DNA of 64,000 bases from Candidatus Woesearchaeota archaeon (GCA_016926395.1 JAFGOT010000010.1:4218-68217), one strand, 5' to 3'; numbered from the stretch's first letter, positions 12-63,236 are shown. Translations and numbers: made by a program. The notes: a model not told the origin generated them from the letters alone.

Positions 12-1733
12 TCAGTAATCATCCTCCGATTTCCGTTTACCAGAACGCGGTTCATCACTAAGCCCGTCGTCTTCTTCATCAGGATCTTCATCATCACTTT
101 CTTTTCCGATTTTTGCCCACTCAGCGTCATACTCAGTATTTTTAGTAGGATCAAATTCCATGGAATCTACTTGTCCCCTTTTGTGTTCAAGAATTTCTTC
201 CAGTTTCCTCATTATTTCTTCTTCATCGCCTTTGTTTAACTTCAAAAGTTCTGTCAACCCAATTGCGACATGAGTCATATATTTTTGAATGAAACTTCTT
301 TTTTTCAGTTCAGTTTTTACTTTTGCTTTCTTTGCAGTATACTTTGACAATTCTCGTCCTGCTTCTTGAAGAGCTTTTCTTATTTCATCAAGTATTTCTG
401 GGTAGTGAGCAATTGCTTCTTTACTTTCACTTGTGAAAGGAACCCAAACAGAAGATATGTGAACTAATATTGTTATAGGTCCAACTGGCAGAGAACCATT
501 TGATTGATTTAGTCCATAAGGTTTCCAGTTTATCGATTGAATTGCTTTTGTAACACCACAAGCACCTTGTTGGAATAATAATGGAACTCTATTTGCAAAA
601 CGCATAACATTAGCTTGTTTATCTTTTGGTTGATCTCCACCATATGCAAGAGCAACTTCTATCTGAAAAGGATTGCCTCTATAAACAGCCGGAGGACGCG
701 ATACTGTTGAATAAAATTCTGCATTGATTTCTTTTTTAATTCCTTTTTCAAGCAACGGTGCTGTGATTGGAGAAATACAGTCAGTTGATGGTGCATGTAT
801 TTTTACTTCTTTAATTGCTTTAACTAATTTTTCTGCATCATCATGTGTTAGTTTTTTAGGTTTTGCATTAGGTTGTATTCTTGCAATCTCGCAGACTTCT
901 TTTACAACTTTAGGACTCACTTTACTAAATTCAGTTGTTAAGAATTGCTGTAGTGTTTTTGAGTCTGTCATCTCAAGCATTTTCATAAAAACGCCAAGTT
1001 CAACTCCATAGGGATGTGGTTTTATTTCTTGAGCAGGTTCAGGAATCTGATCTGTTGCTCTTGGAAAAATAAGTTGTTCTGCTTTTGGATTTGTATAAAT
1101 TATTGTTACATGTGGATTAACAACTGCCGTTTCTTTTAAGTACTCGTCAACACTTTGTGCTCCTTTTTGGTAGCTTCCTTCTAAATCTATTTGAATTTTT
1201 GTTCCGTGATCTTTATTCCACTCTCGTTCTCCATCGCTAACTATTTCTGCTCTGTTTTTTGCAGTGTCTATTTTTAACTCACATTGATATGCAGGTCTAT
1301 CAGGATGAATTTTTGAAATTATTTTTGCTGCTCGACCAGTTGTTAATTGGCCATACATTACACTTGCACTAATTCCAATACCTTGCTGACCTCGAGATTG
1401 TTTTAAACTATGAAATTTACTTCCATAAAGAAGTCTTGCAAAAATATGAGGAACTTGTTCTTTTACTATTCCAGGACCATTATCTTCAATTATTACTCTA
1501 TATCGGTCATTTCCCATCTCGATTATTTCTACAGCTATTTCTGGAGAGATGTTTGCTTCCTCACACGCGTCAAGAGAGTTGTCAACTGCTTCTTTTATTG
1601 TAGTCAGTAATGATTTTCTTTTGTTATCAAAGCCAAGAAGATGACGGTTTTTTGCGAAAAACTCAGCTACCCCTATATCTCTTTGCTTAGTTGCTAATTC
1701 CTCTGCTTTTATGTTTGAAGAAATTTTATTCAA
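12..1733 (-). CDS. top6B: DNA topoisomerase VI subunit B
   Basis: 573-aa ORF with '[15 protein letters not shown]' and the Bergerat-fold ATPase motifs '[12 protein letters not shown]', 'IEDNGPGI', 'GQQGIGIS'. There is no in-frame ATG at the 5' end; candidates are TTG at 1733 (GGAGG directly upstream) or in-frame ATT at 1724. Its TGA (14..12) overlaps an ATG (12..10) of another minus-strand gene leaving the window, where top6A would be expected. Confidence 0.9.
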
Positions 1734-1909: not shown

Positions 1910-3013
1910 ATGGTTTTTTCAATATTTAAAACTAAAAAAGAGACCGTAACAGAGCAAACTAGACCTGTAAATATTAAAGAACTAGAAAGAAAATTAAGAA
2001 TTAAATTCCCAAAAGTCTATGATTTAACCCAAGAGGAAGTCAGTAAACTTAAAGAAGAACAAAGGATTTATGAGGAAAGTCTAAATCCAAAAACACAAGC
2101 AAATACCCCTTCTTTGAATAATTATAGTCATAAAATTCCAGAAGAAACAACAAAGCTTGCTTCTATAGAAGACTCTTCTTCAAATTATATGAACAAACCA
2201 AGCATAGAAGAATATAAAGAAATTATGAGAATTAGAAATGAAGCGAAAAACAATGGTTGGTCAAAAGAAGAACAGAAAGATTGGGAACAACTATTAGTTA
2301 AAGAAGATGAGCATAATAAAAAAACCAAAGTTGGACAAATTCTATCTGGTTTAAAGTTACACTCAGAAAATAACTCTGCAAACTTAGATCAATTATTAGA
2401 TAAAAGGTCTCAACCAATTATGGATAAACTTGAATTTTTTGGAGTTCCAAGAATAACTGTTGGTACTGAAATGTATCACAAGTTAGCTACATATCAATCA
2501 TTTACAATTAATGAAAAATCAGACAAGCCTATTGAAGAGAAAGAATCTATTTTCTATGAATTTGTTAAGCATAACGCTAACGGACAAAAATCTTTGCTAG
2601 ATATAGTATCTGATTTTGAATCAACAATAAATATTCTTACAACCAGTTTTGAAAAAATATTAGAATTAGAAGAAAGTTATGTTCCAAATAAAGTAAAGGG
2701 AAATTATAAAAAAAGACAAGAGGCATTTGAAAAGTCTAAAAAATATATTATAGATAATAATTTAGAAAATGGCTTTATTATTCTTGACGAATACAAAGCC
2801 AAAACACATCGTGTGAAAAAGGATGGCTCTCACTCTTATCGTAAAATGCCTGGCACAATAATTAAACTTAGAAAAAGAACCAATCCTGATGAAATACTTG
2901 CAAAAAAATTTAACAATGACAAAACAAACGGTAACGGTTTAGATTTATCTTTTTGTAATTCAACGCAAGATATTACTAATTTAATGCATTTAAATTATAT
3001 GTTTAAAAATTAA
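1910..3013 (+). CDS. hypothetical soluble Lys/Glu-rich protein
   Basis: 367-aa ORF with ATG start and coding-like composition. No hydrophobic segment and no motif I recognise. Divergent from top6B. Confidence 0.5.
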   Translation: MVFSIFKTKKETVTEQTRPVNIKELERKLRIKFPKVYDLTQEEVSKLKEEQRIYEESLNPKTQANTPSLNNYSHKIPEETTKLASIEDSSSNYMNKPSIEEYKEIMRIRNEAKNNGWSKEEQKDWEQLLVKEDEHNKKTKVGQILSGLKLHSENNSANLDQLLDKRSQPIMDKLEFFGVPRITVGTEMYHKLATYQSFTINEKSDKPIEEKESIFYEFVKHNANGQKSLLDIVSDFESTINILTTSFEKILELEESYVPNKVKGNYKKRQEAFEKSKKYIIDNNLENGFIILDEYKAKTHRVKKDGSHSYRKMPGTIIKLRKRTNPDEILAKKFNNDKTNGNGLDLSFCNSTQDITNLMHLNYMFKN

Positions 3014-4384
3014 TCAAATCATATCATTTATACTAAAGTCATTTAAGTTAGGATCTTTGTTTTGAACTTCTTCTTCAGTTGGTCTTTGAGCTTCATAATC
3101 TGGAACTCCAAGATAATCCTTTAGTCCTTCTTGATTGTCGTTTTCCATGTAACCTTTTATTTTTGATAATTGCGTAAATTGATTACATAATTGGACGTTT
3201 TCAGGCAAGGTAATCTCTGAACACAAATCACTATCTCCAAGCATTACAAAATTCATATAACAATCTTCTTTCCTATCTTTGGTTTCGATTAGATTACAAA
3301 TTTCTGATTCTTGATTTTGTTGTGCTACAGTGTAATAACACTCTGTTTTCAATGCATTATCACTTATTGCAGTACAATAACTCAATGCTTCATCTTTGCT
3401 GTTTTGATTTATTGCATAATCAAATAAGTCTTCATCATCTCTTCCTTTTGCATCTGCTGCTTTTGGTTTTTCAACTTGAGTATTTGGTTTATTTTCTGTC
3501 GTGTCATGATTTTTGGTGGTTGTTTCTGGTGGGTTTGTTTCTTTTGGCTCGTCAGGAACTTTTGGAACTATATCTTCAGGGTTTGCTTGATAACTAAAAC
3601 TAAAAGAAGATTCAGCATATTTTCCACCATAAGTAGCGCTTACTTCTAATCTATACAAACCTGATTCGTAACCGTCCAAGTCAATTCTCTCAATCCATTC
3701 TTTTGACGTATCAAATGATTTTGTATTTTCAATTTTATCAACTATTTTACTATCGCCATCACGTATGATATAATCTACAAATACATCAACCTCTCCATTT
3801 TCTCCTTGATTGATTAGTTCTACAGAAAAACTTAATGGCTCGCCTTCTTTGATTTGTTTTTTTATAGGGGTTGCAGTTACATCAAGAAGTTTATTTGAAC
3901 TTCCAGAACCAAACAATAAATCTTGTGCAAAATAATATCCACCGCCAACAATTAAAGCCACAATTATTAACATCATTCCAAGTTTGGCAATTGAAGAACC
4001 TGAAATGGAATGCTCATGCAAAATAGAAGATTGCATGTTGCCTTGGTAATATTGGGTGTTAATTTGAGAAAGTACTTCTTTTAACATTTTAGGGTCATAA
4101 CCTTGACCTTTAAGATATTCAAATAATTGATCCGGTTGATACCCTTGTTGTAGGTAAGTTAGAACGTAAGAAGTAAGTTGTGTTCTTATTGCATCTTGAG
4201 AAACTTGCGTTTGAGCAACGTTTTGAGCTTGTGTTTGAGGAGCTTGTTGTCCTTGATTTAATTCTGTTAAAGCGTTGTCAACATCGTTTGAATTATATCC
4301 TTGTTGAATTAAATATTGTTTAATCTGCGAACTAGTGTAACCATTTTTTAACTGTGCTTCTATATATTGTGCAAGCGGCGTCAT
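3014..4384 (-). CDS. single-pass membrane protein: two N-terminal cytoplasmic 'GY' helical repeats, TM helix, extracellular beta-rich and Cys-rich region
   Basis: 456-aa ORF. Repeats are 'YIEAQLKNGYTSSQIKQYLIQQGYNSNDVDNAL' and 'YVLTYLQQGYQPDQLFEYLKGQGYDPKMLKEVL'. TM helix is 'IAKLGMMLIIVALIVGGGYYFA'. Start overlaps the upstream gene's stop by 4 nt (4381-4384). Confidence 0.6.
   Translation of the reverse strand: MTPLAQYIEAQLKNGYTSSQIKQYLIQQGYNSNDVDNALTELNQGQQAPQTQAQNVAQTQVSQDAIRTQLTSYVLTYLQQGYQPDQLFEYLKGQGYDPKMLKEVLSQINTQYYQGNMQSSILHEHSISGSSIAKLGMMLIIVALIVGGGYYFAQDLLFGSGSSNKLLDVTATPIKKQIKEGEPLSFSVELINQGENGEVDVFVDYIIRDGDSKIVDKIENTKSFDTSKEWIERIDLDGYESGLYRLEVSATYGGKYAESSFSFSYQANPEDIVPKVPDEPKETNPPETTTKNHDTTENKPNTQVEKPKAADAKGRDDEDLFDYAINQNSKDEALSYCTAISDNALKTECYYTVAQQNQESEICNLIETKDRKEDCYMNFVMLGDSDLCSEITLPENVQLCNQFTQLSKIKGYMENDNQEGLKDYLGVPDYEAQRPTEEEVQNKDPNLNDFSINDMI
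4055..4384 (-). repeat. protein-level tandem 'GY' helical repeat (2 copies); a third copy is at 56543..56665
   Basis: By-eye alignment pattern: Y-[IV]-x3-L-[KQR]-x-G-Y-x3-Q-[IL]-x2-[YL]-L-x3-G-Y-[ND]-x3-[VLI]. Confidence 0.55.
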
Positions 4385-6798
4385 TGTTCTGTTTCATTTA
4401 ATTCCACAAATTTTGGTAGCAAATCTGCTCTATATTGTTTTGTTATTTCACCTAATTTTCCAAGGTTTTGTAATGAATCAATATTTACAGGAGGCGGGAA
4501 TTTGAACAGCGTTATAACCAATTCATTACTAGTGTTGCAAAGGTCACTTCTCGATAGCGCCCACGGCAAGTCTTCACTAAATTCTAGACCTCCCCAAGTT
4601 GCAGGTTTTATTTCAATTGGATCATCAGGAATATATTCTTCTTCTTCAGACATAAACCAACAATCAATACCATCACACACTTTTTTACTATCTTCTGGAA
4701 CTACAACACCATTCGAATCAATTAACATTCCATTAATCAAATATTTTCCAGAGACTAAATCAACATTTTGAATTGCTGTAGAATTATTTGCAAGTATAAA
4801 TTGTGAATAAGGTGACAAATCACCCTCTTTAGTGATTTTTGTGAAAAATATTACTGCTTGTTCACTTGGAGTAATGTTTCTAAGAACGGTTATTTCTACA
4901 TAATCTGTTTCAGATATATCTACACCAAACAAACCTGCAACATATTCATTCGTCATTCCTTCAATCCCGTCTTCATTATACCACCAATTATCTTCACTAT
5001 ATGCTGAACCGCCATTTTTATCAATAATTATTTTTTCTAAAACTTGAATCTTGACTTTTTTATTTACAATCTTATTCATACCATATGAACCAAAGTCTTG
5101 TTCTTGACCTTCATATGTTGATAAAGGAACATAAGTATCTTGATAACCTTCTTTTTTTAGTACTAAGTAACCATTGTTAAATACAGGCAATTGTGAGTTA
5201 AATACTGCATTTCCATAAACATCAAATTGAGTCATTCCTATTCTTTTTTGTGCATAATCTGATACTCCTGCCGAAACAAACACATCACCAAGTGGTTGAC
5301 CATTACAAGTATCGTATGCAGAAATAGTAACGTTTCCAGATGTGTAAAGTGTAGGATCGGAAAACATTTTTTTTACAGGATCATAACCTACAATCTCTCC
5401 TGGTTTTGTTGTTTGTGAAACAGAGTCTCCAGGATTAGTATATTTTATCATGTTAGGATCCCATTCAATTGGGCCTTTATTATTTTGATAATCTTGATTA
5501 TTCAAATTATTTCTAACGTTTGCTTCCATCCCAAATAAAAACGAGTAAGTGCTTCCATCAGGCAAACCATCATCCACTAATTCTACCACAACAGGATAAG
5601 TTACATCATAAAAGAAATTATAATATGTGTCTGATTCTGGAGCTCTCATAATAAAACCATCTAACTCTTCAGGTATTATTGTAATTATTTCTCCCGAACT
5701 TGTTGGTGAAGTGACTTTAGAATAAATATCCCAATCTAAAAATATGTGATTTATTGATAAATTATCTTTTGGAGCTACAATCGTCGATAAAATAAATGAA
5801 TTGTAAAATTCTTTTTCTTGTTCTGACATCTTAGGATCATCTAAATACCAAGCATTATCAGTATCTTCAAACCTAAATAAAGGAACGTAGGAATCAAGTA
5901 AACTTCTAAGTTGATTGTTTATTTGCATTTGTGTCCAAACAATAGCGCTGTTATCATTTGTATACATACTTAAAGGAGGTAAAGAACTTGAATCTATTCG
6001 TCCATAATAGCTTGCTAAGTGAACAACTAAATTTTCTAAGTATTGAGAATTGTATTCTTGGTATAAAATTAGTGACGCTTTAGTTAAGTATTCTAATAAT
6101 GGAACAGGATCTCTAACAATAAATTTTTCAAATTCTTGAGTTTGACCGTCTTTTTCCAAAACTAGTCTCATCGTTGTTTTTACTGCCACATCATCTTCAG
6201 TTAAAAGTGCTTGTGAACTTGGTTTCTCATATTCAATAACATCAAATCCTAAATTAGATAATGCTGAAAAATTATTCAAACAAGTATCTAAGTTATCATC
6301 AACATATTTTTCTATTTGCCATTGAACTTCAGATGCAGTTGGAACTGTTAACTCAACATCTAAAAAGTCTTTTTCAACACTTGATTTTGATTTTATCCAA
6401 TAAGGAACAAACGTTGAGTCATCAGATCCTAAAAGAACTCCGTCATTATTTCCTGTCTGTCCTTTATTGTAGCTAAAAAACCCTTCATACTCAGGGTTAA
6501 ATGGGTCTATATAACCCCCATGAGATCCTATTAAATTTAGTGCTTCTCTAGACACTTGTCCCATACATAATTCTACATAATCTTGAACTGGCTTAAATGA
6601 AGGTTTAGCAGAGGTCACGTCTTTTGCAAAATCATCCACGGCCACGGATTGATTATTTTGAGTGAAAAAAAAGAATCCTGCTCCAACTAATAAAACAATT
6701 CCTATGATTACAAATATAGTTACCTGTGCTTTTCTACCACGTGGAAATACACAACCAAGGGCATTATTTTTTTGTTTGCAAGCTTTCTCTTCTGTCAT
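4381..6798 (-). CDS. large N-terminally anchored extracellular protein (possible class III / pilin-like signal)
   Basis: 805-aa ORF. N-terminus is 'PRGRKAQVTIFVIIGIVLLVGAGFFFF': a basic stretch, then A-Q, then a hydrophobic helix. The rest is hydrophilic and beta-rich with no family I recognise. Start ATG shares its last base with the upstream gene's stop (6798). Confidence 0.6.
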   Translation of the reverse strand: MTEEKACKQKNNALGCVFPRGRKAQVTIFVIIGIVLLVGAGFFFFTQNNQSVAVDDFAKDVTSAKPSFKPVQDYVELCMGQVSREALNLIGSHGGYIDPFNPEYEGFFSYNKGQTGNNDGVLLGSDDSTFVPYWIKSKSSVEKDFLDVELTVPTASEVQWQIEKYVDDNLDTCLNNFSALSNLGFDVIEYEKPSSQALLTEDDVAVKTTMRLVLEKDGQTQEFEKFIVRDPVPLLEYLTKASLILYQEYNSQYLENLVVHLASYYGRIDSSSLPPLSMYTNDNSAIVWTQMQINNQLRSLLDSYVPLFRFEDTDNAWYLDDPKMSEQEKEFYNSFILSTIVAPKDNLSINHIFLDWDIYSKVTSPTSSGEIITIIPEELDGFIMRAPESDTYYNFFYDVTYPVVVELVDDGLPDGSTYSFLFGMEANVRNNLNNQDYQNNKGPIEWDPNMIKYTNPGDSVSQTTKPGEIVGYDPVKKMFSDPTLYTSGNVTISAYDTCNGQPLGDVFVSAGVSDYAQKRIGMTQFDVYGNAVFNSQLPVFNNGYLVLKKEGYQDTYVPLSTYEGQEQDFGSYGMNKIVNKKVKIQVLEKIIIDKNGGSAYSEDNWWYNEDGIEGMTNEYVAGLFGVDISETDYVEITVLRNITPSEQAVIFFTKITKEGDLSPYSQFILANNSTAIQNVDLVSGKYLINGMLIDSNGVVVPEDSKKVCDGIDCWFMSEEEEYIPDDPIEIKPATWGGLEFSEDLPWALSRSDLCNTSNELVITLFKFPPPVNIDSLQNLGKLGEITKQYRADLLPKFVELNETEQ

Positions 6799-7586
6799 TA
6801 TTTCACATCCTCAAAATGATTTATTATCAAATATAATATTGATTCTCGTTTTACGTACATTAAGAAAAATAACATCAAGAAGATTACTAAGCTTACTGTT
6901 GAACTTATTAGAGATAAAAATGCAGACAGCACAAAGATTATCAAAAGTGACACGCTAAAAATTAGCGATATAATTATGTTAAATAATAAATGTTCAAGAA
7001 ATAAAGATAGAAAATGTTTTTTCTTAAACAAAAATCTTGTTTCGTACGAATAATTAAGACTTTCAAGTATTAAAAATATTAAGAACCAAAGTAACATTAC
7101 AAACACCGGATCCGTAAATATCACCAGAGTTAGACCAATTAACAACATCAGTAAAAGCAAGAACAAAAAGTTAGATACAGTTACTCTTAACAATTGTGCT
7201 GAAGGTAGTTTTTTCTTAAAGAATATTTTTTGAAGCATCACAGTTCTGGTTCCTCTTAAGAAACCATAAAAAATTGCAAAAACGACCAATATAACTGAAG
7301 ATCCTAAAAATGCATTCTTTAGTGCATCATAAAAAGCAATTAACATCGTTCCTTGTGCAGGACTTATTTGACCATTTTGTTGATATGTTGCTTTAAACTC
7401 ATAAAGTGCAGGATTATAATCATTAAAGAAAGATAGTTTTCCAAATATTACAGATAATAAAAATAAGCCTACAAAAAAGAACAAGAATAAATAAATTAGA
7501 TTCATTCCAACTAATTTTAATCCATCATTCTTTGTATGACTAAACAAGTCTTTTTTCAGCTCACCAAAATATTTTATTAAGTTCAT
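6798..7586 (-). CDS. polytopic membrane protein (about six hydrophobic segments)
   Basis: 262-aa ORF, very Leu/Phe/Ile-rich. 4-nt start/stop overlap with the upstream gene (7583-7586). Confidence 0.55.
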   Translation of the reverse strand: MNLIKYFGELKKDLFSHTKNDGLKLVGMNLIYLFLFFFVGLFLLSVIFGKLSFFNDYNPALYEFKATYQQNGQISPAQGTMLIAFYDALKNAFLGSSVILVVFAIFYGFLRGTRTVMLQKIFFKKKLPSAQLLRVTVSNFLFLLLLMLLIGLTLVIFTDPVFVMLLWFLIFLILESLNYSYETRFLFKKKHFLSLFLEHLLFNIIISLIFSVSLLIIFVLSAFLSLISSTVSLVIFLMLFFLMYVKRESILYLIINHFEDVK

Positions 7587-8134
7587 TCTTCTTTCTTTAC
7601 AAAATTAACTTTCAAAGTTCCTTCTCCAAAGTTAAGTTCTGCTCTTTCATATTTTTTTACATCAATAAATGCGTGGTAAAATCCCCTTCCTTCAAACTGA
7701 GCCATCTCTGTTGGTTCGATTATCACTTTACCCACGTCATTTTCATCATAAACAGTTAATGAGAAAGTTATATCTTCAGTTGTTGGTTGTAAGTACCATG
7801 CAAGTTCATGATAATAATCACCATAATTATCTTTTATTGTTGCTTGAAGAGTTGCTGTAGTTCCATACGCAAAATTCTGGCTACTAAAAGAGTTGCCATT
7901 AGATATTTCTCCTGTCAGGTCAGAAGATAATTTTCTTGAACATCTTTCTATTTCCCAGTCTTCAACAGGTCGCCATCCAGTTTCTGCAAAATAACTATTA
8001 CTTACAGGATCAGCCATTCCATCAACTCTATAGCTGTAAGTTAAATCTGCACTGTCAACAGAAGAAGCTCCCATTATAATTCCAACTATTGCAACAAAAA
8101 GTAACGATCCAAATATTAGCACATCACTCTTCAT
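7583..8134 (-). CDS. small N-terminally anchored or secreted protein
   Basis: 183-aa ORF. N-terminal hydrophobic segment is 'VLIFGSLLFVAIVGIIMGASS'. 4-nt overlap with the upstream gene (8131-8134). Confidence 0.55.
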   Translation of the reverse strand: MKSDVLIFGSLLFVAIVGIIMGASSVDSADLTYSYRVDGMADPVSNSYFAETGWRPVEDWEIERCSRKLSSDLTGEISNGNSFSSQNFAYGTTATLQATIKDNYGDYYHELAWYLQPTTEDITFSLTVYDENDVGKVIIEPTEMAQFEGRGFYHAFIDVKKYERAELNFGEGTLKVNFVKKEE

Positions 8135-11100
8135 TCTTCAACCTCCAAAGGAATACCTGAACAGAAGTCTTCACCTTCAAGTTCTCGAAGTCCTGGTTGC
8201 CATGGATTTTGGAAATATGATTCATAATTTGCAGCGGTTAAGTAAGCACCTGTTAGGCTACAAGTAACAGATCTCCATCCTGAAGGAATGCTACATTTAC
8301 TCATCGAATCTAAAGCACTTCCCCAAAGATTATCTCCTAAGCCAAATGGCAAGTATTCTTCTGGACACATTATCTTTCTTGATGTAAGTACTACTTGGTT
8401 TGCAATTGCAAAACCACTTCCATAACCATCATCGCCTACTTCTCCCCAGAAATAGTTTTGCCATATTTTTGTAAAGAAACTATCCCAAAATCCTTCATTA
8501 GACATTGGTCCGTCATAATAAACACATTTTCCTTGATCGAAATCTATTTCACAACTAGTGATTGGAAGACCATTCTTTGCGTTTTCTTCAATACACTTAT
8601 ACTCCCTACAATTTAATTGTTTTAATTTTTCTTTTGCATAGACTATTCCTGGACCACACAAACATCCAGCAGCAAATTTTCTGTCTTCGAATGGATCCAT
8701 TCGCTCAACAATACCGCCTTCTTGTATGTCTTGTTGTCTTTGAGCAAATGCGGATTGTTCTGCTGTTAAAGAATCGTATTTTTTAGCTTGATCAACACGC
8801 TCCAATTGCCGATTTATTGTATCTAATTGAGATTCTGTCTTCCTCAAGGATTGTCTATTTTCTCTCATAGCAGTACGTTTAATTTTACCATCTTCAATAT
8901 TTTGAATCTCAGATACATCGTTCTTAATACTTTGTATGTCTTTTGAAATACTGGATTTTTCAGCATTTAAACTAGCAACATAAGAATTCAAGTTTTCGAC
9001 TGTAACTTGATTGCCACTTCCATCGACAATACCATAAGCATTCAATCCTTCTTGAAGAGTTTCTTGTTTTCCTTTTAGAGCTTCAACTTGTCGCTGTTTC
9101 GCAAAACTAAGTTCTTCCTTTTGAAGATCTACTGCTTGATCATAAATTTCTTTATCTGCTTGTAAAGAAGTCATTTTATCAGTTAATGTTTTAACTTTTG
9201 CAGGATCACCACCACAATTTTCAATTGGCTTTCCCCCACAAACACTTGCTAATTCCTTTTTTGTTGCTTCTATTTCTTCATTTACTTTTTTTAATCCATC
9301 CTCAGAACTAGCTAAATCTTTTTCAGCACTTGCAACATCATTTTTTGCCTCATCAATAGCGGCTTTGTCATTAAGACTTTTTGTTTGTTCAACATACGAA
9401 CCAACAATATTAACTGCTTGTAATACTCCTTCTGGAGAACATAAACCACAATTGTAAACCAAACAACCCAATTTTAAGAATGAATCTATTCCTACATTTA
9501 ATTTATCATTACTGGCAGTGCCCGAATCACCACCCAACATTTTTGTCAGAGAACCAATTGGATTAACTTTTGATCTTAAGCTATTTAACTTTTCGAACAA
9601 ATTTGAACATAAATTCGTCCACATAGTATCTACACCAGGAACCCAACTAAAACCAACTGCAACTCCATATACCACCGTCTCAATAGCAGATATAGTTGAA
9701 AAAACAGTGTTAAATGTGTTTGATATAGTGCATATCGTGTCAATAATATCTAAATAGGTATGCCAGTCATCAATGCTGTCTTGCAAATCATTTATCTCTC
9801 CAACAATATCAGTTAGTTTTTCTTGAGTTGCAATATCGATTGTTCCAAGTTCTTGATTAAATGTTGGCATACGCACTACTAACTCTTCGAGTTCTGGTTT
9901 TGTGTAACGCACAACTCCTCTTTTTTCATAAACTTTGATAGTGCAATTAATAGTAACTGAAGAATCTAATAATTGTTCTCGCCCACCTATTGGAACTACA
10001 AGTATCGGTTGTTTTGAATGTTCATTGATAAAATATGGTCTTCCTGCTAAATCTTTTGTTCCAACACAACCAGTCGTATCTAAATCTACAATTTCTGTGT
10101 TTTGATTTTTGAAATTAAAATCTAATGGAAGGTATGCTCTTATTGGCATAAATGTCATCATTCGTTTGTCAATTTTTTGTGTTGGATTAGAAGTTATAGA
10201 AGATAATGATTCTGGTGGAACTTGTGTTTCTGCTTCACATACTTGTATTGGAATTGTTAAGTCTTCAATTTGGTTTCCAGCTAAGTCTTTGACAGTTACT
10301 GCCAAGTCTTCTTTCTCTGCATAAGAAACAAAATTACTTAATTCTAATTTACAAACAAAGATATTTCCTTGTCTTTGACAATCATTTTGAAAGAAGTTAT
10401 CTGTTGTTATTTTTTCTGGACTCGCACTTATTCTTATTATTGGAGAAACTTCATCAGTTACATTTATTGTAAGATATGCCTTTTCTCCAGTTATTGGACA
10501 TAATACCGAAAAGTTAAGATCTGTTTTTGCAACAGGAGGATCTTGGTCAACAATCACTGTTGATGAAGATATTCCTTTTAACGGAGAACCAAGCGAATCT
10601 GTTGAAGGTGTTGTTAACGCCACTGTTTGTCGTGAACCCGAAGATATCGTTTTATCCACAGGTAAATAACCATAACAAGTGTAATAGTCGCCAGTATCAT
10701 TACAAGAAGCCATTTTAATATAACCAAGGGTTGATAACCCTGATGCCGAAACCGTTATTAAATAAGGTTTAATTTCAACATCTTGACTGGTTATGTGCAT
10801 AAATAATTTATTAGCACCACCTTTATAGTAACATGTTCCTTCAAAACAATTTTCTTTTGCATCTCTTCCAAAATAAGTAACTTCACTCAATTTTGTTTGA
10901 ATCGCAAAATGAGCAGAAATATTTTTTGTTGATACATGACCTTTGAAATCTGTTGCAGTTACTTTAATAGGAACTTCTGTTGCACCAGGATTTATTTGTA
11001 CGCCTTCAAACACGCACTCATACATTAATCCTTGTTTTGTACATCTTGCAGTTCTAGAACTGTCTTGGCTTTTTAATTCTGGATCTCTTGACAGCGAAGA

Positions 11101-11901
11101 TAAATCTCCAGTTACTAATGTTAAATTATCATCTTTGACCTTTACATAAATATCAGCACTTGGAACCATCGAAGGTTGTGATGAAATAGTTTCTAATTTT
11201 GTTTCTCCTGATAGAACAATTACTTCATCTTGTATTTCAGGGCCTTGAAAATCAACATTAATTGGTCCGAAATTCAACTGACCAAATTGTCCTAAATTAT
11301 CTTGTACTATAGCTGTAAAAATGAAGTCGCCACTAACCTTTGGAGGCTTAATTAAAACGGATTTTTCATAAACACATAATCCTTTTTCACCAATCGTTTC
11401 TTTGTAAAAGACATCTTCTTCTGTTGTTACTTCAATCGATTGTATTCCTGCACAATTTTCTGAACCCATAAATGCTTCATCATAAGCAGTTATAGTCAAA
11501 TTCAACTTGTCTCCAACAGGTTCGACAAGAAGTTTTGTTATTACAGGTGCTCTTCCATCAACAATAAATGGCCAAGTAAAAATTTGTGTTAATCCTTGTT
11601 TGAATGTTAAAACATATTCTCCTGCTTCAGTTGTTGTTTTTTCAAATGTGTGATCACATACAAAAAGACCTTCGTCATTTTCTACGCAACTCATTGGATA
11701 ATCTTGATCTCCACGAACAATACTCACTGCCGCATCAGAAACTACGTGAACTTTTGTAATATCCTCTAACCCTCGGATACCTTTTATTCCATTAGTACCA
11801 GTTATATCTACAGTTGTAACAGCGTTAACCATTGAAATCTGCATCAGAAAAATACTTAGAAGCAAAAAAAATAATAATTTTCTCTCTATTCGCACACCCA
11901 T
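8131..11901 (-). CDS. giant secreted surface protein (signal peptide, beta-rich region, hydrophobic patch, long coiled coil, Cys-rich C-terminus)
   Basis: 1,256-aa ORF. Signal-like N-terminus is 'RKLLFFLLLSIFLMQISMVNA'. A heptad-rich segment ('AAIDEAKNDVASAEKDLASSEDGLKKVNEEIEATKKEL ... LDTINRQLERVDQAKK') is followed by a C-terminal domain with many Cys. No family recognised. Confidence 0.65.
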   Translation of the reverse strand: MGVRIERKLLFFLLLSIFLMQISMVNAVTTVDITGTNGIKGIRGLEDITKVHVVSDAAVSIVRGDQDYPMSCVENDEGLFVCDHTFEKTTTEAGEYVLTFKQGLTQIFTWPFIVDGRAPVITKLLVEPVGDKLNLTITAYDEAFMGSENCAGIQSIEVTTEEDVFYKETIGEKGLCVYEKSVLIKPPKVSGDFIFTAIVQDNLGQFGQLNFGPINVDFQGPEIQDEVIVLSGETKLETISSQPSMVPSADIYVKVKDDNLTLVTGDLSSLSRDPELKSQDSSRTARCTKQGLMYECVFEGVQINPGATEVPIKVTATDFKGHVSTKNISAHFAIQTKLSEVTYFGRDAKENCFEGTCYYKGGANKLFMHITSQDVEIKPYLITVSASGLSTLGYIKMASCNDTGDYYTCYGYLPVDKTISSGSRQTVALTTPSTDSLGSPLKGISSSTVIVDQDPPVAKTDLNFSVLCPITGEKAYLTINVTDEVSPIIRISASPEKITTDNFFQNDCQRQGNIFVCKLELSNFVSYAEKEDLAVTVKDLAGNQIEDLTIPIQVCEAETQVPPESLSSITSNPTQKIDKRMMTFMPIRAYLPLDFNFKNQNTEIVDLDTTGCVGTKDLAGRPYFINEHSKQPILVVPIGGREQLLDSSVTINCTIKVYEKRGVVRYTKPELEELVVRMPTFNQELGTIDIATQEKLTDIVGEINDLQDSIDDWHTYLDIIDTICTISNTFNTVFSTISAIETVVYGVAVGFSWVPGVDTMWTNLCSNLFEKLNSLRSKVNPIGSLTKMLGGDSGTASNDKLNVGIDSFLKLGCLVYNCGLCSPEGVLQAVNIVGSYVEQTKSLNDKAAIDEAKNDVASAEKDLASSEDGLKKVNEEIEATKKELASVCGGKPIENCGGDPAKVKTLTDKMTSLQADKEIYDQAVDLQKEELSFAKQRQVEALKGKQETLQEGLNAYGIVDGSGNQVTVENLNSYVASLNAEKSSISKDIQSIKNDVSEIQNIEDGKIKRTAMRENRQSLRKTESQLDTINRQLERVDQAKKYDSLTAEQSAFAQRQQDIQEGGIVERMDPFEDRKFAAGCLCGPGIVYAKEKLKQLNCREYKCIEENAKNGLPITSCEIDFDQGKCVYYDGPMSNEGFWDSFFTKIWQNYFWGEVGDDGYGSGFAIANQVVLTSRKIMCPEEYLPFGLGDNLWGSALDSMSKCSIPSGWRSVTCSLTGAYLTAANYESYFQNPWQPGLRELEGEDFCSGIPLEVEE

Positions 11902-11921: not shown

Positions 11922-11938
11922 AGAGTATTTAAAGATTA
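11922..11938 (-). promoter_or_regulatory. archaeal BRE/TATA promoter core for the 8131-11901 operon
   Basis: 'AGAGTATTTAAAGATTA' as written on the + strand; on the minus strand it reads TAATCTTTAAATACTCT. It is centred about 29 nt upstream of the ATG at 11901 and is identical to 18279-18295. Confidence 0.5.
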
Positions 11939-11965
11939 TGTTTATAAACAAAGAACGAAAATTAA

Positions 11966-13444: not shown

Positions 13445-13446
13445 TG

Positions 13447-13520
13447 TGGGTCGGGGGGGATTTGAACCCCCGACTTCTCCCTCTTCAGGGGAGCGCTCTG
13501 CCGGTCTGAGCTACCAACCC
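13447..13520 (-). tRNA. tRNA-Phe (anticodon GAA), no encoded CCA
   Basis: The reverse complement folds by hand into a 74-nt cloverleaf: GGGTTGG TA GCTC AGACCGGCA GAGC G CTCCC CTGAAGA GGGAG AAGTC GGGGG TTCAAAT CCCCC CCGACCC A. It has a 7-bp acceptor stem (one G-U), 4-bp D stem, 5-bp anticodon stem and 5-bp T stem. Confidence 0.9.
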
Positions 13521-13636: not shown

Positions 13637-15889
13637 TTAGCTACCAATATTTATTGGTATTGCTCCTGCCACTAAGTTAAATACGAGTATTGCTCCTCCT
13701 GCAAGCATAATATATAGTATTGTTGATTTAGTCATTCCTATTCCTAATGCGTTTTCTTTTCCTATTTGATCACCGCCAGTTTCTATTCCGTTTCCTATAA
13801 CAGTTAGGATGTAAGCTAGTTCAACAACATAAAGACCCACTACAATTTGGAAATGATATGTTGGTATTCCAGTTCCAAACATAGATAATAATCCCGCTCC
13901 TCCACCTGCTGCTCCACCTGCAGATAGTTGTTTCATTCCATCACCTAGTATTCCTAAAATTTTTGTGATCATGCTTGTTATTCCAACTACAATTCCTGAA
14001 ATTACAGGTGTTAAGAATTTTACTTGACCTTTCAAACTTCCTATAACATCTCCTAATAAATCTTGTAGTCGCTCGTCAACTCTATGCATTTGTTTGATAT
14101 ATTCGGAAACATTAATTATCGCTTGGCTAGCTACCAGCGGTCCTTTTTTACTTGATTCGACAAGAACTTTCATCGAACTTTCTATTAGGTCCGATGGATA
14201 ATATTGCAAAGCTCCTTTTTCTTTGTCAAATATTGCTTTTTCGACACTCATCCCTAAACGAGTAATGTTAACGTGAACTAACATGAAAAATTTTCCTGAA
14301 ACAGTATCTTGCATCATCGAGGCTACTTTTCCAAATGATGTTTCGGCTGGTATTCCATCACCTATCCTGCTTCCTAATTGGAACAACGCACTAGAAAATT
14401 CAAGTTCTAATTTTTTTGATTGGTCTCTTATTTTCACAATTTTTTGTGATTTCATTTTAAAATAAAGACCCATAAAATAACCTATACTTAGAGGTATAAG
14501 GAGACTAAACATCATCGCTCCAAGACCAAAAGGCCCTACTAAATCTTCAGTTGCATCCCCTCCTTCAGTTCTCACTCGGTAATTTAAGAAATAATATTTT
14601 GCAGTTCCAGGATCTATAAAATCTGCATTGACTAATTTTAAATTTCCTGAAGGCCCCGGTGCTAAAGCATAATCTGGAAGACCTACAGAATACCATATTA
14701 AAGGTATCAATCCGATTAAAAAAACAATTGCTCCTAAAACAAAACAAACAACTATCGGTTTTAGATATAATTCTTGTCCGCCAAAATTTATTGTTATGTT
14801 CTTAAGTTTTTTTAGTTCGGGGTTTTTTTCTGTTATGTCTTGATCTCCACTTCCACCCGGCCTTGTAGATAATATTTTTGATCCTAAATAATAAACCGCA
14901 ATAGGTAATAGAATATTATAGAATGCGAGCAAGTGATACCATCGCATATTATCCATAAAGCTTACTACTAATGGTAATAGTACTAATGTTAATATTGGAA
15001 GAACAACTCCAAGCATGTTAAGTGTTGTTAATGGTGCTTGCAAGTTGTGTGCAAAGTGAATCATTTTTTCATACGTACCATCAAGCATAACAGCTAATGC
15101 TTTGTCAAGACTTCCAAGTCGCCTATCATTACTTGATTCATAAAGAGAAGATTGTATTAAGTGCATACACTCTACAAACTCTTCGTTATTATGACGCCAA
15201 GCATTTAAGTAATCATCAAGAGAATCTTTCACTGAATCAAATTTTTCCGTCTCAACATTCCAAACAATTTTTCTCATGTCAAGTGCTAATGGAGGCCCTA
15301 AATGTTCTGCTGCAAAGTTTATTGCAAGCTCCAAGTTTGATGTGTGTCTCATATATGTTACTACATAAAAAACAGCTAGAACCATTTGGTTTGATGCTTT
15401 CATCTTCCAAGAACCAGCTAAAGTCATTGGTAAACTTTGTAAAGGTATAAGCATTGCAAGCCCGCCAAGTAATGCAAACATTACAAAGAATAAGTTTCCT
15501 TGACCGCCCAAAGCCATAGGAATAATAAAGAAAATAATCATTGCTGCAAAGATTATTGCTAAAGGAATTACAAGTGCAGCACTATATACGCCCGTAGGAG
15601 TTGTGTTTAGATGACAAGTGTTTATAGCTTCTTGAAGTGCTTGCGCTTTTTTTTCATCTGGTCTAAAAGGAATTGTTTTTTCTGCAAAATTACAAATTTT
15701 TTCGTAAACAGTAAAATTTTTTGGCATGTATTGTTTTTTGAATTCTTCATACGCTCTTGTTTGTCCAACTTCTTCACTTGCAAATCCGCCGTTGTTTCCA
15801 GATAACTCTTGTTCTAATCTTTCTTTAAAAAGTTGAGACAATCGTTTATCCGAGATTTGTTCTTCGTCTGGCATTTTTTTATTCTGCAA
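13637..15889 (-). CDS. FlaJ/TadC-like polytopic platform protein (type II secretion system F-domain family)
   Basis: 750-aa ORF with many TM segments. It has two cytoplasmic helical blocks of T2SS-F type, e.g. 'LGSRIGDGIPAETSFGKVA ... RLGMSVEKAIF ... IESSMKVLVESSKKG'. It overlaps the upstream ATPase gene by 11 nt. Confidence 0.65.
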   Translation of the reverse strand: MQNKKMPDEEQISDKRLSQLFKERLEQELSGNNGGFASEEVGQTRAYEEFKKQYMPKNFTVYEKICNFAEKTIPFRPDEKKAQALQEAINTCHLNTTPTGVYSAALVIPLAIIFAAMIIFFIIPMALGGQGNLFFVMFALLGGLAMLIPLQSLPMTLAGSWKMKASNQMVLAVFYVVTYMRHTSNLELAINFAAEHLGPPLALDMRKIVWNVETEKFDSVKDSLDDYLNAWRHNNEEFVECMHLIQSSLYESSNDRRLGSLDKALAVMLDGTYEKMIHFAHNLQAPLTTLNMLGVVLPILTLVLLPLVVSFMDNMRWYHLLAFYNILLPIAVYYLGSKILSTRPGGSGDQDITEKNPELKKLKNITINFGGQELYLKPIVVCFVLGAIVFLIGLIPLIWYSVGLPDYALAPGPSGNLKLVNADFIDPGTAKYYFLNYRVRTEGGDATEDLVGPFGLGAMMFSLLIPLSIGYFMGLYFKMKSQKIVKIRDQSKKLELEFSSALFQLGSRIGDGIPAETSFGKVASMMQDTVSGKFFMLVHVNITRLGMSVEKAIFDKEKGALQYYPSDLIESSMKVLVESSKKGPLVASQAIINVSEYIKQMHRVDERLQDLLGDVIGSLKGQVKFLTPVISGIVVGITSMITKILGILGDGMKQLSAGGAAGGGAGLLSMFGTGIPTYHFQIVVGLYVVELAYILTVIGNGIETGGDQIGKENALGIGMTKSTILYIMLAGGAILVFNLVAGAIPINIGS

Positions 15890-18248
15890 TTTGTTGTTGT
15901 GAATTTTGTTTTAGTTTTATTCTCTTAACTTCTTTTTCAATCCAGTCATTCCATTCAAAATATATCGCTTCGTGATCTTCTTTTCCTGATCGTTTAATTA
16001 CTTTTTCAACTACTTTATGAAATGTGTCGTTTGCTAAGATTACAAATTCTGCTTCCATCAAATCAGGTAACTTTTCTTTCATTGCGATTTCGAATATTCT
16101 TTGTTTTACTTTTGCTCGAAGTTGGATATTATCCCACATCGCATCCCAGTTTCCAGTGTATTCTTTAACTTTCGATGCAATATCTTTTAGTATTTCGCTT
16201 TCTCCGTTTAATAACTCTGGTGTTGGTTCTAAAGTGTCTGTTTTTGCGTTGTATTTCATCAAGTCTACAAAGCCACCTTCTGTTCCGGGATCTTTGTCCC
16301 AGTCTTTTCTTACTTCGGTTATTTGTAGCACTCTTCTCATTTTGTGAAGCCCATCGGCTGATTTTATTGGATTAACAATTATGATTATATCTGTTGCTTT
16401 AAACGAAGTATTTGGCACTCCAATATCATTGACTAATCGGTCATAAATACCATAAGGACTATCACCGTGAATTGTTCCTGCTACAACATTTGCTGCAGCT
16501 CCAACTCTCATTGCTTCATAAAGTGCTTTTGCTTCTCCACTTCTTACTTCTCCAACAATTAAAGCACTATCTCCAAGACGCAAAGTACTTCGTATACCAT
16601 CAGCTGCAGTAAATTCCCCGCCTGATTTTCCAAGTGCACTCGCAACTTTTATTGGTTGAATGTTAAAACCTAATTTTCTCATCGCAGTTCCTGGAAGTTC
16701 AAGCGTGTCTTCAACTGTTATAATTCTATGTCGTCTCATTATCTCAATTAATAGCGATGATAGAAAACTACTTTTACCTGAACTTCTCGTACCACACACA
16801 AGAAAAGTTCTTGTTCCATCTATTAAAAAAGACAATAATCCTGCCCCTAAAGGACTAAGCATTTTGTATTTTAGAAATAAAGGTAATGTCCATGGTTTGT
16901 CTCGATGTCGTCTAAATGAGAATGCTAAACCTGAAGGATCAAGTGGTTTTGTTATCGTACTTGTCCTAATACTTGCACCAGGTAATTCAAGTTCTGTATC
17001 AAGAATTGGATTCGCTTCATCAAGTGGTCGACCAGAAATCATTCTTAATTTTGATGCCCAACTTTCTGTATCACCGATGGTTGGAAAAATATTTGTTATA
17101 CAATCATCATAATCTGCGTGTACAATAAATATAGGCACTTCTCCAGCTGGAGAGTTAACAGATATGTCCTGCATTTTTTCATCTTGAAGAAGAACTTCTA
17201 TCAGTCCAAATCCCACTGTATATCTAACAAGTATTGCTGCTAGTTCTTCTACTTGTTTATCATCTAGCGTTATATTTCTATAGTTTGCTAATTCAACAAG
17301 AAGATCTTTTCCTACATTGTGAAAAACTTCTCTCATTCTTGCAGGGTCGGTGAACTCATCGCTATCCGGTTGATGCTCACTCATTATTTTTCTTGCAGTA
17401 TCAAGTAAGTCATACAACTCTTCAGAAAGTTTAAACTCTGGTGGCATCACATGATATAAATATTGAACCGTATCTGGTCTCTCAAAAATTACAACTTCTG
17501 TATCTCCAATTGTGTAGTTGTCAAGTTCAACTCCATTTTTTGGATATGTTGCCATAAGTTTTGTAAACATAAAATCTGGTTTTATTATTGGAAAGAATAT
17601 TTTTCTGTATGCATCTCTGTTTCCAATTTCGTGTCCTTCAATATATGGTCTTGCTACTAAGAAAAACTTGGTTCCTTCTAAAAGTTCAAGTATGTGGTCG
17701 ATTAATTTTACGTAATGAAGTATTCCTTCTGCTAAGTTTAAATCTAGTTCTTTGTCTGCTGCAATTTGTTCCCTTCGTTTTATTCTTTTCAGTCTTACAA
17801 AACAAGAGATAGGATCTTTTTTTAGTTCTGTAAATAAAACACTGTGAAGTTCGTTGTATTTTGATGCCAGTGTTGATGCTGCAATTGATTGTGCTAGAGA
17901 AGAATAACTAAACAATTCTTTATTTCTAATTAATTTTACATATAATTTTGCAAGTTCTTGAAGAAGGGAAACTTGCGTATAATCATACTCATAATTGTGT
18001 TTTTGTAAGAATACTAATTTTGTGGCGTTTGGATTTTCTATTAGCATATTTATTGCTTCATCCATAGTTACTTCGTCATCTTCAATAGATGGAATTCTAC
18101 CTCTATTTGCGTAATTAACTAGTATAGAAACGTCATCGCCTTCTCGTTCAACTTCATATTGAAGTTTCTTCTTTTTTTCGTCAAACGCCATTAAACCACT
18201 CAAACCCTCTTTTTGTGACTTTCTAGTAATACTGATATAATTTAGCAT
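15879..18248 (-). CDS. FlaI/VirB11/GspE-family secretion ATPase with a long N-terminal extension
   Basis: 789-aa ORF. Walker A is 'GTRSSGKSS'. Other family motifs are 'ITVEDTLEL' and 'ALIVGEVRSGEAKALYEAMRVGAAANVVAGTIHG'. The conserved ATPase core occupies roughly the C-terminal half. Confidence 0.85.
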   Translation of the reverse strand: MLNYISITRKSQKEGLSGLMAFDEKKKKLQYEVEREGDDVSILVNYANRGRIPSIEDDEVTMDEAINMLIENPNATKLVFLQKHNYEYDYTQVSLLQELAKLYVKLIRNKELFSYSSLAQSIAASTLASKYNELHSVLFTELKKDPISCFVRLKRIKRREQIAADKELDLNLAEGILHYVKLIDHILELLEGTKFFLVARPYIEGHEIGNRDAYRKIFFPIIKPDFMFTKLMATYPKNGVELDNYTIGDTEVVIFERPDTVQYLYHVMPPEFKLSEELYDLLDTARKIMSEHQPDSDEFTDPARMREVFHNVGKDLLVELANYRNITLDDKQVEELAAILVRYTVGFGLIEVLLQDEKMQDISVNSPAGEVPIFIVHADYDDCITNIFPTIGDTESWASKLRMISGRPLDEANPILDTELELPGASIRTSTITKPLDPSGLAFSFRRHRDKPWTLPLFLKYKMLSPLGAGLLSFLIDGTRTFLVCGTRSSGKSSFLSSLLIEIMRRHRIITVEDTLELPGTAMRKLGFNIQPIKVASALGKSGGEFTAADGIRSTLRLGDSALIVGEVRSGEAKALYEAMRVGAAANVVAGTIHGDSPYGIYDRLVNDIGVPNTSFKATDIIIIVNPIKSADGLHKMRRVLQITEVRKDWDKDPGTEGGFVDLMKYNAKTDTLEPTPELLNGESEILKDIASKVKEYTGNWDAMWDNIQLRAKVKQRIFEIAMKEKLPDLMEAEFVILANDTFHKVVEKVIKRSGKEDHEAIYFEWNDWIEKEVKRIKLKQNSQQQIAE

Positions 18249-18278
18249 ACCATCTAGTTACATTATATTGATAAAATG

Positions 18279-19464: not shown

Positions 19465-19890
19465 TTAATTTTGTCTGTTACCAGTTGTTGCTTTCAAATC
19501 ATCAGTTATTCTTGCAAGATCCGAAACTTTTTCTGTGAATAAAGGCAACACTTTCGCAAAGACTTTTTCCATCGCTTGTATCTCTGCTCCAACATCAAGA
19601 ATGTGTTTATCATATTCTCCGACTTTACCAACAACTGCTTGATGTAATTTATCATACTCTGCTCTCAAGTCTTTGATTTCTTGTTCCATAGAAGATAATC
19701 TACTTTCCGCTACAGATTTCCAGTCAATTATTTTATTAATATCACGTAGAAGATCGTTCCACTTTTCATCTATTATCGCTTCTATTAATTCTTCATTTGT
19801 TGCTTCTGATTGCATTGGCGCTGACATTCCACCCATTGGTGGCATTCCGCCTGGCATTTGTGGAGGGGGCATCCCCATTGGTTGAACCAT
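19465..19890 (-). CDS. small coiled-coil protein with Pro/Met/Gly-rich N-terminus
   Basis: 141-aa ORF. 'MVQPMGMPPPQMPGGMPPMGGMSAPMQ' is followed by heptad-like helices. No family recognised. Confidence 0.55.
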   Translation of the reverse strand: MVQPMGMPPPQMPGGMPPMGGMSAPMQSEATNEELIEAIIDEKWNDLLRDINKIIDWKSVAESRLSSMEQEIKDLRAEYDKLHQAVVGKVGEYDKHILDVGAEIQAMEKVFAKVLPLFTEKVSDLARITDDLKATTGNRQN

Positions 19891-20541: not shown

Positions 20542-20576
20542 TTTATTATTTTATCTCCAAAGTTTTTAACTCGAAT

Positions 20577-21200: not shown

Positions 21201-21215
21201 TTTTTTCACCTTTGT

Positions 21216-21263
21216 AAAAAATGGTGCTCAAAAATCGTGTTGATTTTTGTTGTGCCATTTTTT
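21216..21263 (-). terminator. nested hairpin between two paralog genes (possible terminator or processing site)
   Basis: The inner stem CAAAAATC/GATTTTTG (8 bp, 5-nt loop) lies inside an outer A6TGG..CCAT6 stem. The T-run is on the 3' arm of the minus-strand transcript. Confidence 0.3.
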
Positions 21264-21308
21264 TAGCCTTACATGAATATTGAGTTTTTTATTTCTCAAT
21301 AATTATCG

Positions 21309-21887: not shown

Positions 21888-21907
21888 CTTCTTTATAACC
21901 ACGCTTT

Positions 21908-57139: not shown

Positions 57140-57140
57140 T

Positions 57141-61250: not shown

Positions 61251-61253
61251 TTT

Positions 61254-63222: not shown

Positions 63223-63236
63223 AAAAACCCCTCTTT

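Follow-up and report, generated by a model that had tools for sequence, protein, structure and literature searches.

Five overlapping minus-strand genes in a 64,000-nt stretch of DNA from a Candidatus Woesearchaeota archaeon (GCA_016926395.1 JAFGOT010000010.1:4218-68217; hereafter the window) very probably form a conserved, co-functioning envelope module of the Woesearchaeota, to judge from gene order and domain fusions in related genomes. We propose that this module specifies a prepilin-peptidase-dependent, pilin-anchored complex which displays an adhesin built of immunoglobulin (Ig)-like domains and a coiled coil, and we put the probability of this reading at roughly 0.45. Woesearchaeota are tiny symbiotic archaea, among the most abundant and diverse of the uncultured archaea, and are presumed to spend their lives attached to the cells of other organisms; to our knowledge no attachment machinery of this group has yet been assigned to genes. 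The module represents a concrete candidate for their attachment to partner cells. Its genes are designated here by the length of their products in amino acids (aa), and all five start with ATG:

8131-11901, minus strand: g1256, giant secreted protein of 1256 aa
7583-8134, minus strand: g183, protein of 183 aa with one N-terminal hydrophobic segment
6798-7586, minus strand: g262, polytopic membrane protein of 262 aa
4381-6798, minus strand: g805, large prepilin-like protein of 805 aa
3014-4384, minus strand: g456, protein of 456 aa with one membrane segment and cytoplasmic repeats

Conservation of the module and size of its families

The open reading frames (ORFs) and the overlaps chaining them (8131-8134, 7583-7586, 6798 and 4381-4384, that is 4, 4, 1 and 4 nt) are those listed in a first-pass annotation of the window, and a simple hydropathy scan agrees with the signal peptide or transmembrane segments which it ascribed to every product. 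GGAGG- or GAGG-like motifs are found upstream of the g183 and g805 starts. The overlaps by themselves are unremarkable, since 4-nt overlaps are common across the window. The operon can be considered real because 18 independent loci have the genes in this order, most of the junctions again being overlaps. These were identified in a set of 90 loci, in which ORFs were called and searched with iterated profiles of the five families; the complete run g1256-g183-g262-g805 shows median junction gaps of -5.5, -4 and -4 nt, and the flanks of this core vary among loci (RIO1/KH, MCM, Topo VI). Gene order in relatives, the check by which the cluster could have failed, was found to be conserved.

The overlaps had also been read as a sign of co-assembly and fixed stoichiometry. 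Behaviour as a unit is borne out by the synteny and by two unrelated metagenome-assembled genomes (MAGs) in which the g1256 homologue ends in a g183 domain fused in frame; this domain occupies residues 1118-1270 (L059) and 1130-1281 (L034) with E about 1e-45, and the fusion supports co-assembly. The fifth gene behaves differently: g456 adjoins the core in most loci, but it lies on the opposite strand in 13 and is co-oriented only in the close relatives of the window. Since it is usually convergent and not co-transcribed, a fixed stoichiometry could apply at most to the four-gene core. A second kind of fusion is known from a single case, which could be an error: in the 1060-aa representative protein P0023, g262 (residues 15-259) is fused ahead of g805 (279-1042), with the prepilin-type motif NKKGQVTIF in an internal position. 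If genuine, cleavage at this site would part both halves on the cytoplasmic face, and the arrangement would be topologically consistent.

A paralogous arrangement, type B, is present in 53 loci, where it mostly follows the MetRS gene. It runs from g805' through g1256', a secreted protein of 600-1360 aa, g262' and g805'' to another secreted protein, which is Ig-like. The secreted protein following g1256' carries a weak g183-like C-terminal domain in seven loci, and because it ends in this way type B can be described as the four-gene core with one more g805 in front of it. The window-type arrangement (type A) and type B are adjacent in six loci, and at least four MAGs have them on different contigs.

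These data bear on the simplest alternative, namely that five unrelated envelope genes are merely packed side by side in a compact genome and have no joint function. The frequency of 4-nt overlaps in the window and the change of strand of the fifth gene between lineages are in line with such an accidental packing. However, the order recurs in the 18 loci amid differing neighbours, the paralogous module has the same internal order and domain fusions occur. With synteny conserved and fusions in existence, the absence of any joint function appears very unlikely indeed. On the identities with the L001 relative (46-55% for the module proteins against 82-91% for the flanking KH, RIO1 and Topo VI-B), the module is evolving far more rapidly than the housekeeping genes that flank it. 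In one Woesearchaeota MAG, KatS3mg002 (L002, 14547-16827 / 16992-18269), the homologue of g805 is broken into pieces of 437 and 338 aa and that of g456 is without its N-terminal reading frame; these genes are either pseudogenes or assembly errors, and fragments of a degraded type B module lie upstream.

Curated libraries assign none of the five envelope products, in agreement with the first-pass annotation, which had recognised no family for them. Scans of all five against Pfam, NCBIfam and PHROGs gave nothing above threshold, PDB sequence searches of the 1256-aa and 805-aa proteins gave nothing significant, and profile searches against the PDB returned only Ig-domain, coiled-coil and miniprotein matches. 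Their description as orphans was wrong, as they belong to very large, lineage-wide families. Two word-indexed searches, with only 3 and 10 homologues, had suggested orphans and were overturned by two exhaustive searches; a third word-indexed search, made with the g1256 alignment, gave four known sequences and nothing further. The HMMER search with a g805 profile over 1.84 billion cluster representatives returned 8,592 matches at E<=1e-3, 5,774 at <=1e-10 and 1,552 at <=1e-30, the weakest of which may be confined to the beta-sandwich. A scan of the GTDB species genomes for the same family confirmed at least 323 loci. Among the best 80 of these, 38 records are labelled Woesearchaeota and 12 Nanoarchaeota/Nanoarchaeia, and 25 are titled 'uncultured Methanosarcinales archaeon' (including L014, L016, L023-L026, L028, L029, L031, L035, L036, L039 and L040). 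The latter label is almost certainly wrong for these module-bearing records; it is implausible because one of them is a complete 774-kb chromosome (OZ246410.1). A viral origin was ruled out, as a search of IMG/VR yielded no relative.

Archaeal filament genes are already known to be accompanied by large class III proteins and by adhesin-like proteins rich in Ig domains (preprint 10.64898/2026.04.22.720090). We found no account in the literature of this module, that is of its families, its set of four genes, its polytopic partner or its giant pilin-like protein devoid of Glu5.

The N-terminus of g805 and a proposed assembly

The link of the module to type IV filament biology is given by the N-terminal motif of g805 and not by the neighbourhood, because its physical linkage to a pilus-type ATPase is weak. 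On the evidence of the family alignment and an AlphaFold2 (AF2) model, the protein may be divided as follows:

about 6658-6735, minus strand: motif and hydrophobic helix of g805, comprising a basic leader, RKA+Q25 and the helix, as placed by the alignment
g805 aa 66-430, minus strand: novel helical/alpha-beta domain of the ectodomain
g805 aa 485-800, minus strand: CnaB/transthyretin-like beta-sandwiches

In the window the N-terminus of g805 reads RKA and then QVTIFVIIGIVLLVGAGFFFF, so that it presents the short basic leader ending in [KR][GA] and the hydrophobic helix of about 20 residues that mark archaeal class III signal peptides. The family as a whole has a K/R-rich leader and [KR][GAS], then Q-[IV]-T-x-F-I-I-x-G and the hydrophobic helix, with the Q at median position 8; Q25, F29, I31 and G33 are invariant in the alignment. 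This N-terminus is nearly fixed although overall identity within the family is only 20-30%. The motif in its strict form (-1 G/A/S, +3 T, +5 F/Y, +9 G) is found in 121 of 157 g805 representatives. Its specificity was assessed over 3,609 ORFs: the motif is carried by 116 of the 124 belonging to the g805 family and is found in none from the other four module families and in 4 of the 3,268 remaining. Those four are small pilins, KKA+QAAMEF and RKA+QASIEV, encoded beside an ATPase and two T2SSF genes (L046, L051, L052). The +5 residue is Phe in 110 and Tyr in 10 of the 121 representatives, and Glu in the neighbouring small pilins. Both the frequency of the motif in the family and its specificity strongly reinforce the earlier proposal of a class III-like N-terminus for g805.

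The remaining features of g805 recall the cap pilins GspK and PilX. A large pilin with a hydrophobic +5 residue, encoded last in its cluster, has been proposed as the mark of the first, tip-located filament subunit in bacterial systems (PMC5207764). Members of the g805 family have 700-850 aa and their gene closes the core of four, so that the protein shares with GspK-type caps its size, far above that of the local pilins, the prepilin-type N-terminus, the hydrophobic +5 and the 3'-end position. Likewise, g1256 is comparable to the tip adhesin PilY1/PilC in being a large Sec-exported non-pilin protein encoded together with g805. In contrast, neither sequence nor detected fold similarity relates the module proteins to GspK, PilX or PilY1; GspK homology of g805 was absent from Pfam, NCBIfam and PDB sequence searches, and the C-terminal beta-propeller of PilY1/PilC had no Pfam match in g1256 or in 42 members of its family. 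The bacterial systems also differ in that the module has one pilin-like protein and no partners of GspI/J type, adds a polytopic and a bitopic protein, and is archaeal, without outer membrane or secretin.

On these grounds we propose the following assembly. g805 would insert in the membrane beside the polytopic g262, with its short basic leader in the cytoplasm, and a class III signal (prepilin) peptidase would cut it after [KR][GA]. As g805 is very large and lacks Glu5, it could serve only to cap a short stalk resembling a type IV filament, as its first subunit, or to act as a stand-alone pilin-type anchor. The g805 ectodomain together with g183 would then hold the Cys-rich C-terminal domain of the Sec-exported g1256, whose coiled coil may act as a spacer projecting the Ig-like domains outward in order to bind the surface of a partner or host. 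Finally, g456 would connect the assembly to the cytoplasm via its helical repeats. The first-pass annotation had suggested a dedicated cell-surface structure, such as a fibre or an attachment organelle; synteny, fusion and motif make a surface complex a reasonable reading, and nothing shows a fibre or an organelle.

Several observations weigh against this assembly. Pfam Class_IIIsignal (PF04021), applied with E up to 10, matched none of four g805-family N-termini; two control pilins from L051 matched it at E=0.0096 and 0.59, neither of which reaches the curated cut-off. The AF2 model of g805, with a predicted local distance difference test score (pLDDT) of 68, shows a long N-terminal helix, the helical/alpha-beta domain and the C-terminal sandwiches, and no pilin fold was present among the 50 matches listed by Foldseek for each of PDB and BFVD. 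Only CnaB/transthyretin-like sandwich domains were found there, at a whole-chain template modelling score of at most 0.25, and the helical/alpha-beta domain had no structural relative detected by Foldseek. The model of g1256 (residues 58-1256, 4 sequences) reached a pLDDT of 42, too poor for a structure search. The module contains a single pilin-like protein, against several minor pilins in known priming complexes. No prepilin peptidase was found among the window ORFs scanned, including Pfam scans of 20 further ORFs, and no small pilins were found in the window. Loci other than the window with an ATPase within 10 kb of the module are L045, L046, L051 and L052 only, and all four share one arrangement. 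Furthermore, the conserved residues of the g805 membrane helix could instead reflect packing on g262.

The giant protein, its partners and alternative functions

From the homologue alignment, the AF2 model and profiles, the following parts can be distinguished in g1256, the secondary structure being that of the low-confidence model:

g1256 aa 1-27, minus strand: Sec-type signal
g1256 up to about aa 690, minus strand: probable tandem Cys-paired bacterial-Ig-like domains and a further beta region
g1256 aa about 690-835, minus strand: disulfide-stapled helical hairpin with a moderately hydrophobic helix
g1256 aa about 836-1060, minus strand: coiled coil, fast-evolving and indel-rich
g1256 aa 1061-1256, minus strand: conserved Cys-rich C-terminal domain

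The repeat domains are bounded by 'D..GN' and 'D...P.I'. In Pfam, Big_3_3 was recognised in 9 of the 42 family members and Big_13 in 5 of 42, the window protein itself having no match, and the family profile matches Ig domains of Rib/R28, the IgA-Fc receptor and SiiE in the PDB (E=3.6e-5 to 3e-3). After a conserved 'YN.PLG' come a long helix, the moderately hydrophobic helix, which about 24 of the 42 members have at the same place, and a C-x4-C loop. The coiled coil is only 24% identical to that of the closest full-length homologue, against 56-72% in the other regions. g1256 is identical to a deposited hypothetical protein of a Candidatus Woesearchaeota MAG (JXA48_01260, 1233 aa), except that the deposited start lies 23 codons downstream of the ATG used here, affecting 11833-11901. 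On comparison with the homologues it is too short, as it would delete the signal peptide that all of them retain.

g183 possesses a single N-terminal hydrophobic segment, which resembles a cleavable Sec signal in homologues, and the alignment reveals W60, E61, C65, T95, Q97, A98, E110, W113 and G149 as invariant; no match was found in Pfam or the PDB. It may constitute a small beta-rich adaptor domain, secreted or N-terminally anchored, that is joined to the giant protein in some lineages. For g262 about six membrane segments are predicted, the family having mostly 6-7 hydrophobic segments, and an N-in/C-in orientation is suggested by the basic character of the N-terminus, the C-terminus and alternate loops. 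The family occurs in both module types and Pfam had no match in 42 of its members. Conservation is poor, with only M1, K19, K24, K125 and Y252 invariant, and since there are almost no invariant residues g262 looks structural, not catalytic. We infer that it could be the membrane dock of the complex.

g456 is composed as follows:

g456, N-terminal part, minus strand: two cytoplasmic three-helix 'GY...L...GY' repeats
g456 aa about 126-158, minus strand: membrane segment
g456, extracellular part, minus strand: CARDB-like beta-sandwich, Pro/Thr-rich linker and conserved domain with six invariant Cys

The protein gives sub-threshold Pfam matches of RecX_HTH1 type and its repeats match a designed three-helix miniprotein; CARDB, MG2 or TRAP_beta matches occur in few members of the family. 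The tblastn search (E=0.007) and the iterated g456 profile located a paralogue in the window:

56540-57139, minus strand: g456 paralogue of 199 aa with a membrane segment and a cytoplasmic 'GY' repeat

This gene closes a second surface-protein cluster (56540-63998, minus strand) of six ORFs (253, 292, 159, 205, 1369 and 199 aa) with several 4-nt overlaps. In three of its small products a basic N-terminus leads into a hydrophobic helix. The 1369-aa giant contains NlpC/P60 and SLT (peptidoglycan hydrolase) domains, which are odd for an archaeon and suggest a bacterial target.

The domain composition of g1256 brings in a second explanation, in which the locus encodes an S-layer-like envelope scaffold: g1256 would form an Ig canopy on a coiled-coil stalk docked on g262, g805, g183 and g456, and the g805 N-terminus would be a plain anchor that never enters a filament. 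A beta-domain head, a long coiled coil and a basal attachment domain do resemble the stalked S-layers SlaA/SlaB and tetrabrachion, SlaB appears among the beta-sandwich matches of g805 in Foldseek, and some Ig proteins of filament loci resemble S-layer proteins (preprint 10.64898/2026.04.22.720090). The near-universal presence of the module in the lineage is likewise what would be expected of an envelope component. The g1256 profile also matches the SlaB coiled coil (8qox_B, E=3.4e-4), but this weak match is confined to Ser/Leu-rich heptads (residues 342-447 of 8qox_B) and was judged compositional. Unlike those proteins, g1256 has only 7 N-glycosylation sequons in its 1256 aa and no C-terminal hydrophobic anchor, hydropathy revealing none in g1256 or its homologues, and the module has a pilin-type protein and multiple paralogues, with two paralogous modules per genome. 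Moreover, Woesearchaeota have S-layer genes annotated in their own right, which rank with the most highly expressed genes of these archaea (PMC11606122), and a plain anchor leaves unexplained the leader and cleavage-site-like motif shared with pilins. We therefore consider a scaffold of this kind rather unlikely.

A capture or degradation complex similar to the Sulfolobus bindosome, in which the Bas system assembles class III sugar-binding proteins, was also considered. Here g805 would be a pilin-anchored binding protein or enzyme, which the other products organise near the membrane for nutrient scavenging. Large functional proteins with a prepilin-type N-terminus and non-pilin domains are established in Sulfolobus, where they are displayed close to the membrane and form no long filament, and have been discussed as 'functionalised' filament machineries (preprint 10.64898/2026.04.22.720090). 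The conserved motifs of the g805 N-domain (GGY, YD[VLI][TS][YF]PV and EAN.RNN) could line a binding site. Yet no substrate-binding-protein, hydrolase or transporter family was detected in any module gene, no ABC transporter was linked to the module in the loci examined, no BasABC-like small pilins were detected, and the listed Foldseek matches of g805 included no binding protein. Rapid divergence and adhesin-type Ig repeats better suit the recognition of variable surfaces, and a nutrient-capture role seems improbable.

The pilin-anchored adhesin complex can be extended to a bolder proposal, to which we attach a low probability. The four-gene core and g456 might be protein parts of a DPANN host-contact apparatus, in which a Glu5-less cap pilin, powered by the type IV filament motor, would carry the giant, the Ig head would bind the host envelope, and the conserved hydrophobic helix, the disulfide-stapled loop and the coiled coil would act on the host membrane like a viral class I fusion protein, helping to open cytoplasmic bridges. 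Such bridges and an attachment organelle have been seen by electron cryotomography in other DPANN, and the proteins of the organelle are stated there to be unknown (PMC11420986). The Nanobdellota organelle (cone, portal and filament; PMC11420986) resembles the proposed complex in being a host-contacting envelope structure of related DPANN; a link between the two is purely conjectural.

A lineage-wide, fast-evolving module outside the curated families would offer well-defined targets for proteomics and for labelling with antibodies, for structural studies in situ and for predicting host range, and it suggests that archaea, too, may use a 'first subunit' that lacks Glu5, as proposed for bacterial type IV filaments. 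As a minimum outcome, five large protein families, one of them with thousands of representative clusters, merit family definitions. The module should be of interest to specialists in DPANN and archaeal cell surfaces.

Possible filament machinery next to the module, and flanking sequences

The genes and elements surrounding the module are the following:

11926-11933, minus strand: TATA-box-like element TTTAAATA, read from the sequence between the KH gene and g1256
11941-11948, minus strand: TATA-box-like element TTTATAAA, read in the same way
13446-13520: tRNA-Phe
13637-15889, minus strand: platform-like polytopic protein of 750 aa, a single gene with weak colinear alignment to a T2SSF protein
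15879-18248, minus strand: T2SSE/FlaI-type ATPase (Pfam T2SSE, NCBIfam FlaI) with an N-terminal extension of about 280 aa

The ATPase and the platform-like gene lie on the same strand about 1.7 kb upstream of the module. Between them and the cluster we found the three separators which the first-pass annotation had named, tRNA-Phe, RIO1 and a KH protein (arCOG04150). The 750-aa protein has no match to Pfam T2SSF. The adjacency to this FlaI/FlaJ-like pair, on which the earlier reading had leaned, is not conserved: in the 90-locus comparison only 4 loci besides the window have an ATPase at a distance of up to 10 kb, and a conserved linkage was rejected on this basis; by a rough estimate, such proximity is at about chance level in genomes of about 1 Mb. 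It is possible but unproven that the ATPase and the 750-aa protein (13637-18248) are the partner machinery of the module.

In archaeal 'system 2' loci an ATPase with an extended N-terminus and a single platform gene are often accompanied by large adhesin-like proteins (preprint 10.64898/2026.04.22.720090). The window is similar to these loci and to subsystems 4A/4G of the same preprint in that one strand encodes the extended ATPase and the single platform-like protein, together with a protein of class III type, several membrane proteins and a giant rich in Ig-like domains. It departs from archaeal filament loci in that tRNA-Phe, RIO1 and KH part the module from the ATPase, that most relatives have no ATPase within 10 kb and that the module families are without Pfam assignment.

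Upstream of the ATPase, three successive polytopic proteins (205, 210 and 197 aa) are encoded at 19924-21902 on the minus strand, with one borderline TMEM127 match; the 205-aa and 197-aa proteins are related to each other (tblastn E=8e-5). A Pro/Met/Gly-rich coiled-coil protein is encoded beside them at 19465-19890, and these four could be accessory parts of the filament machinery. The first 7 kb of L045 and L051 hold a compact Woesearchaeota filament locus in which small pilins are accompanied by two T2SSF half-platform genes, an ATPase of 485 aa and a cytoplasmic protein of 652-655 aa. In L045 and L083 the gene for this cytoplasmic protein is divergent from a g456-family gene, after which follow a 235-aa protein, MetRS and a type B module. 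The layout of L051 is alike, with no g456-family gene detected.

The gap between the KH gene and g1256 is 64 nt, and the pair of TATA-box-like elements within it (11926-11948) is a candidate for the module's own promoter, which would give a leaderless mRNA or one with a very short leader. A diversity-generating retroelement near the genes was ruled out, as the 64-kb window contains no template/variable repeats and no repeat longer than 47 nt.

On the other side of the module, a plus-strand ORF (1910-3013) codes for a Lys/Glu-rich protein of 367 aa without family match, its stop abutting that of g456 (3013/3014). It is 56% identical in the closest relative, L091, where Topo VI-B reaches 93.5%, and it is absent from L001 and L006; hence it appears to be a fast-evolving neighbour that was recently acquired or lost.

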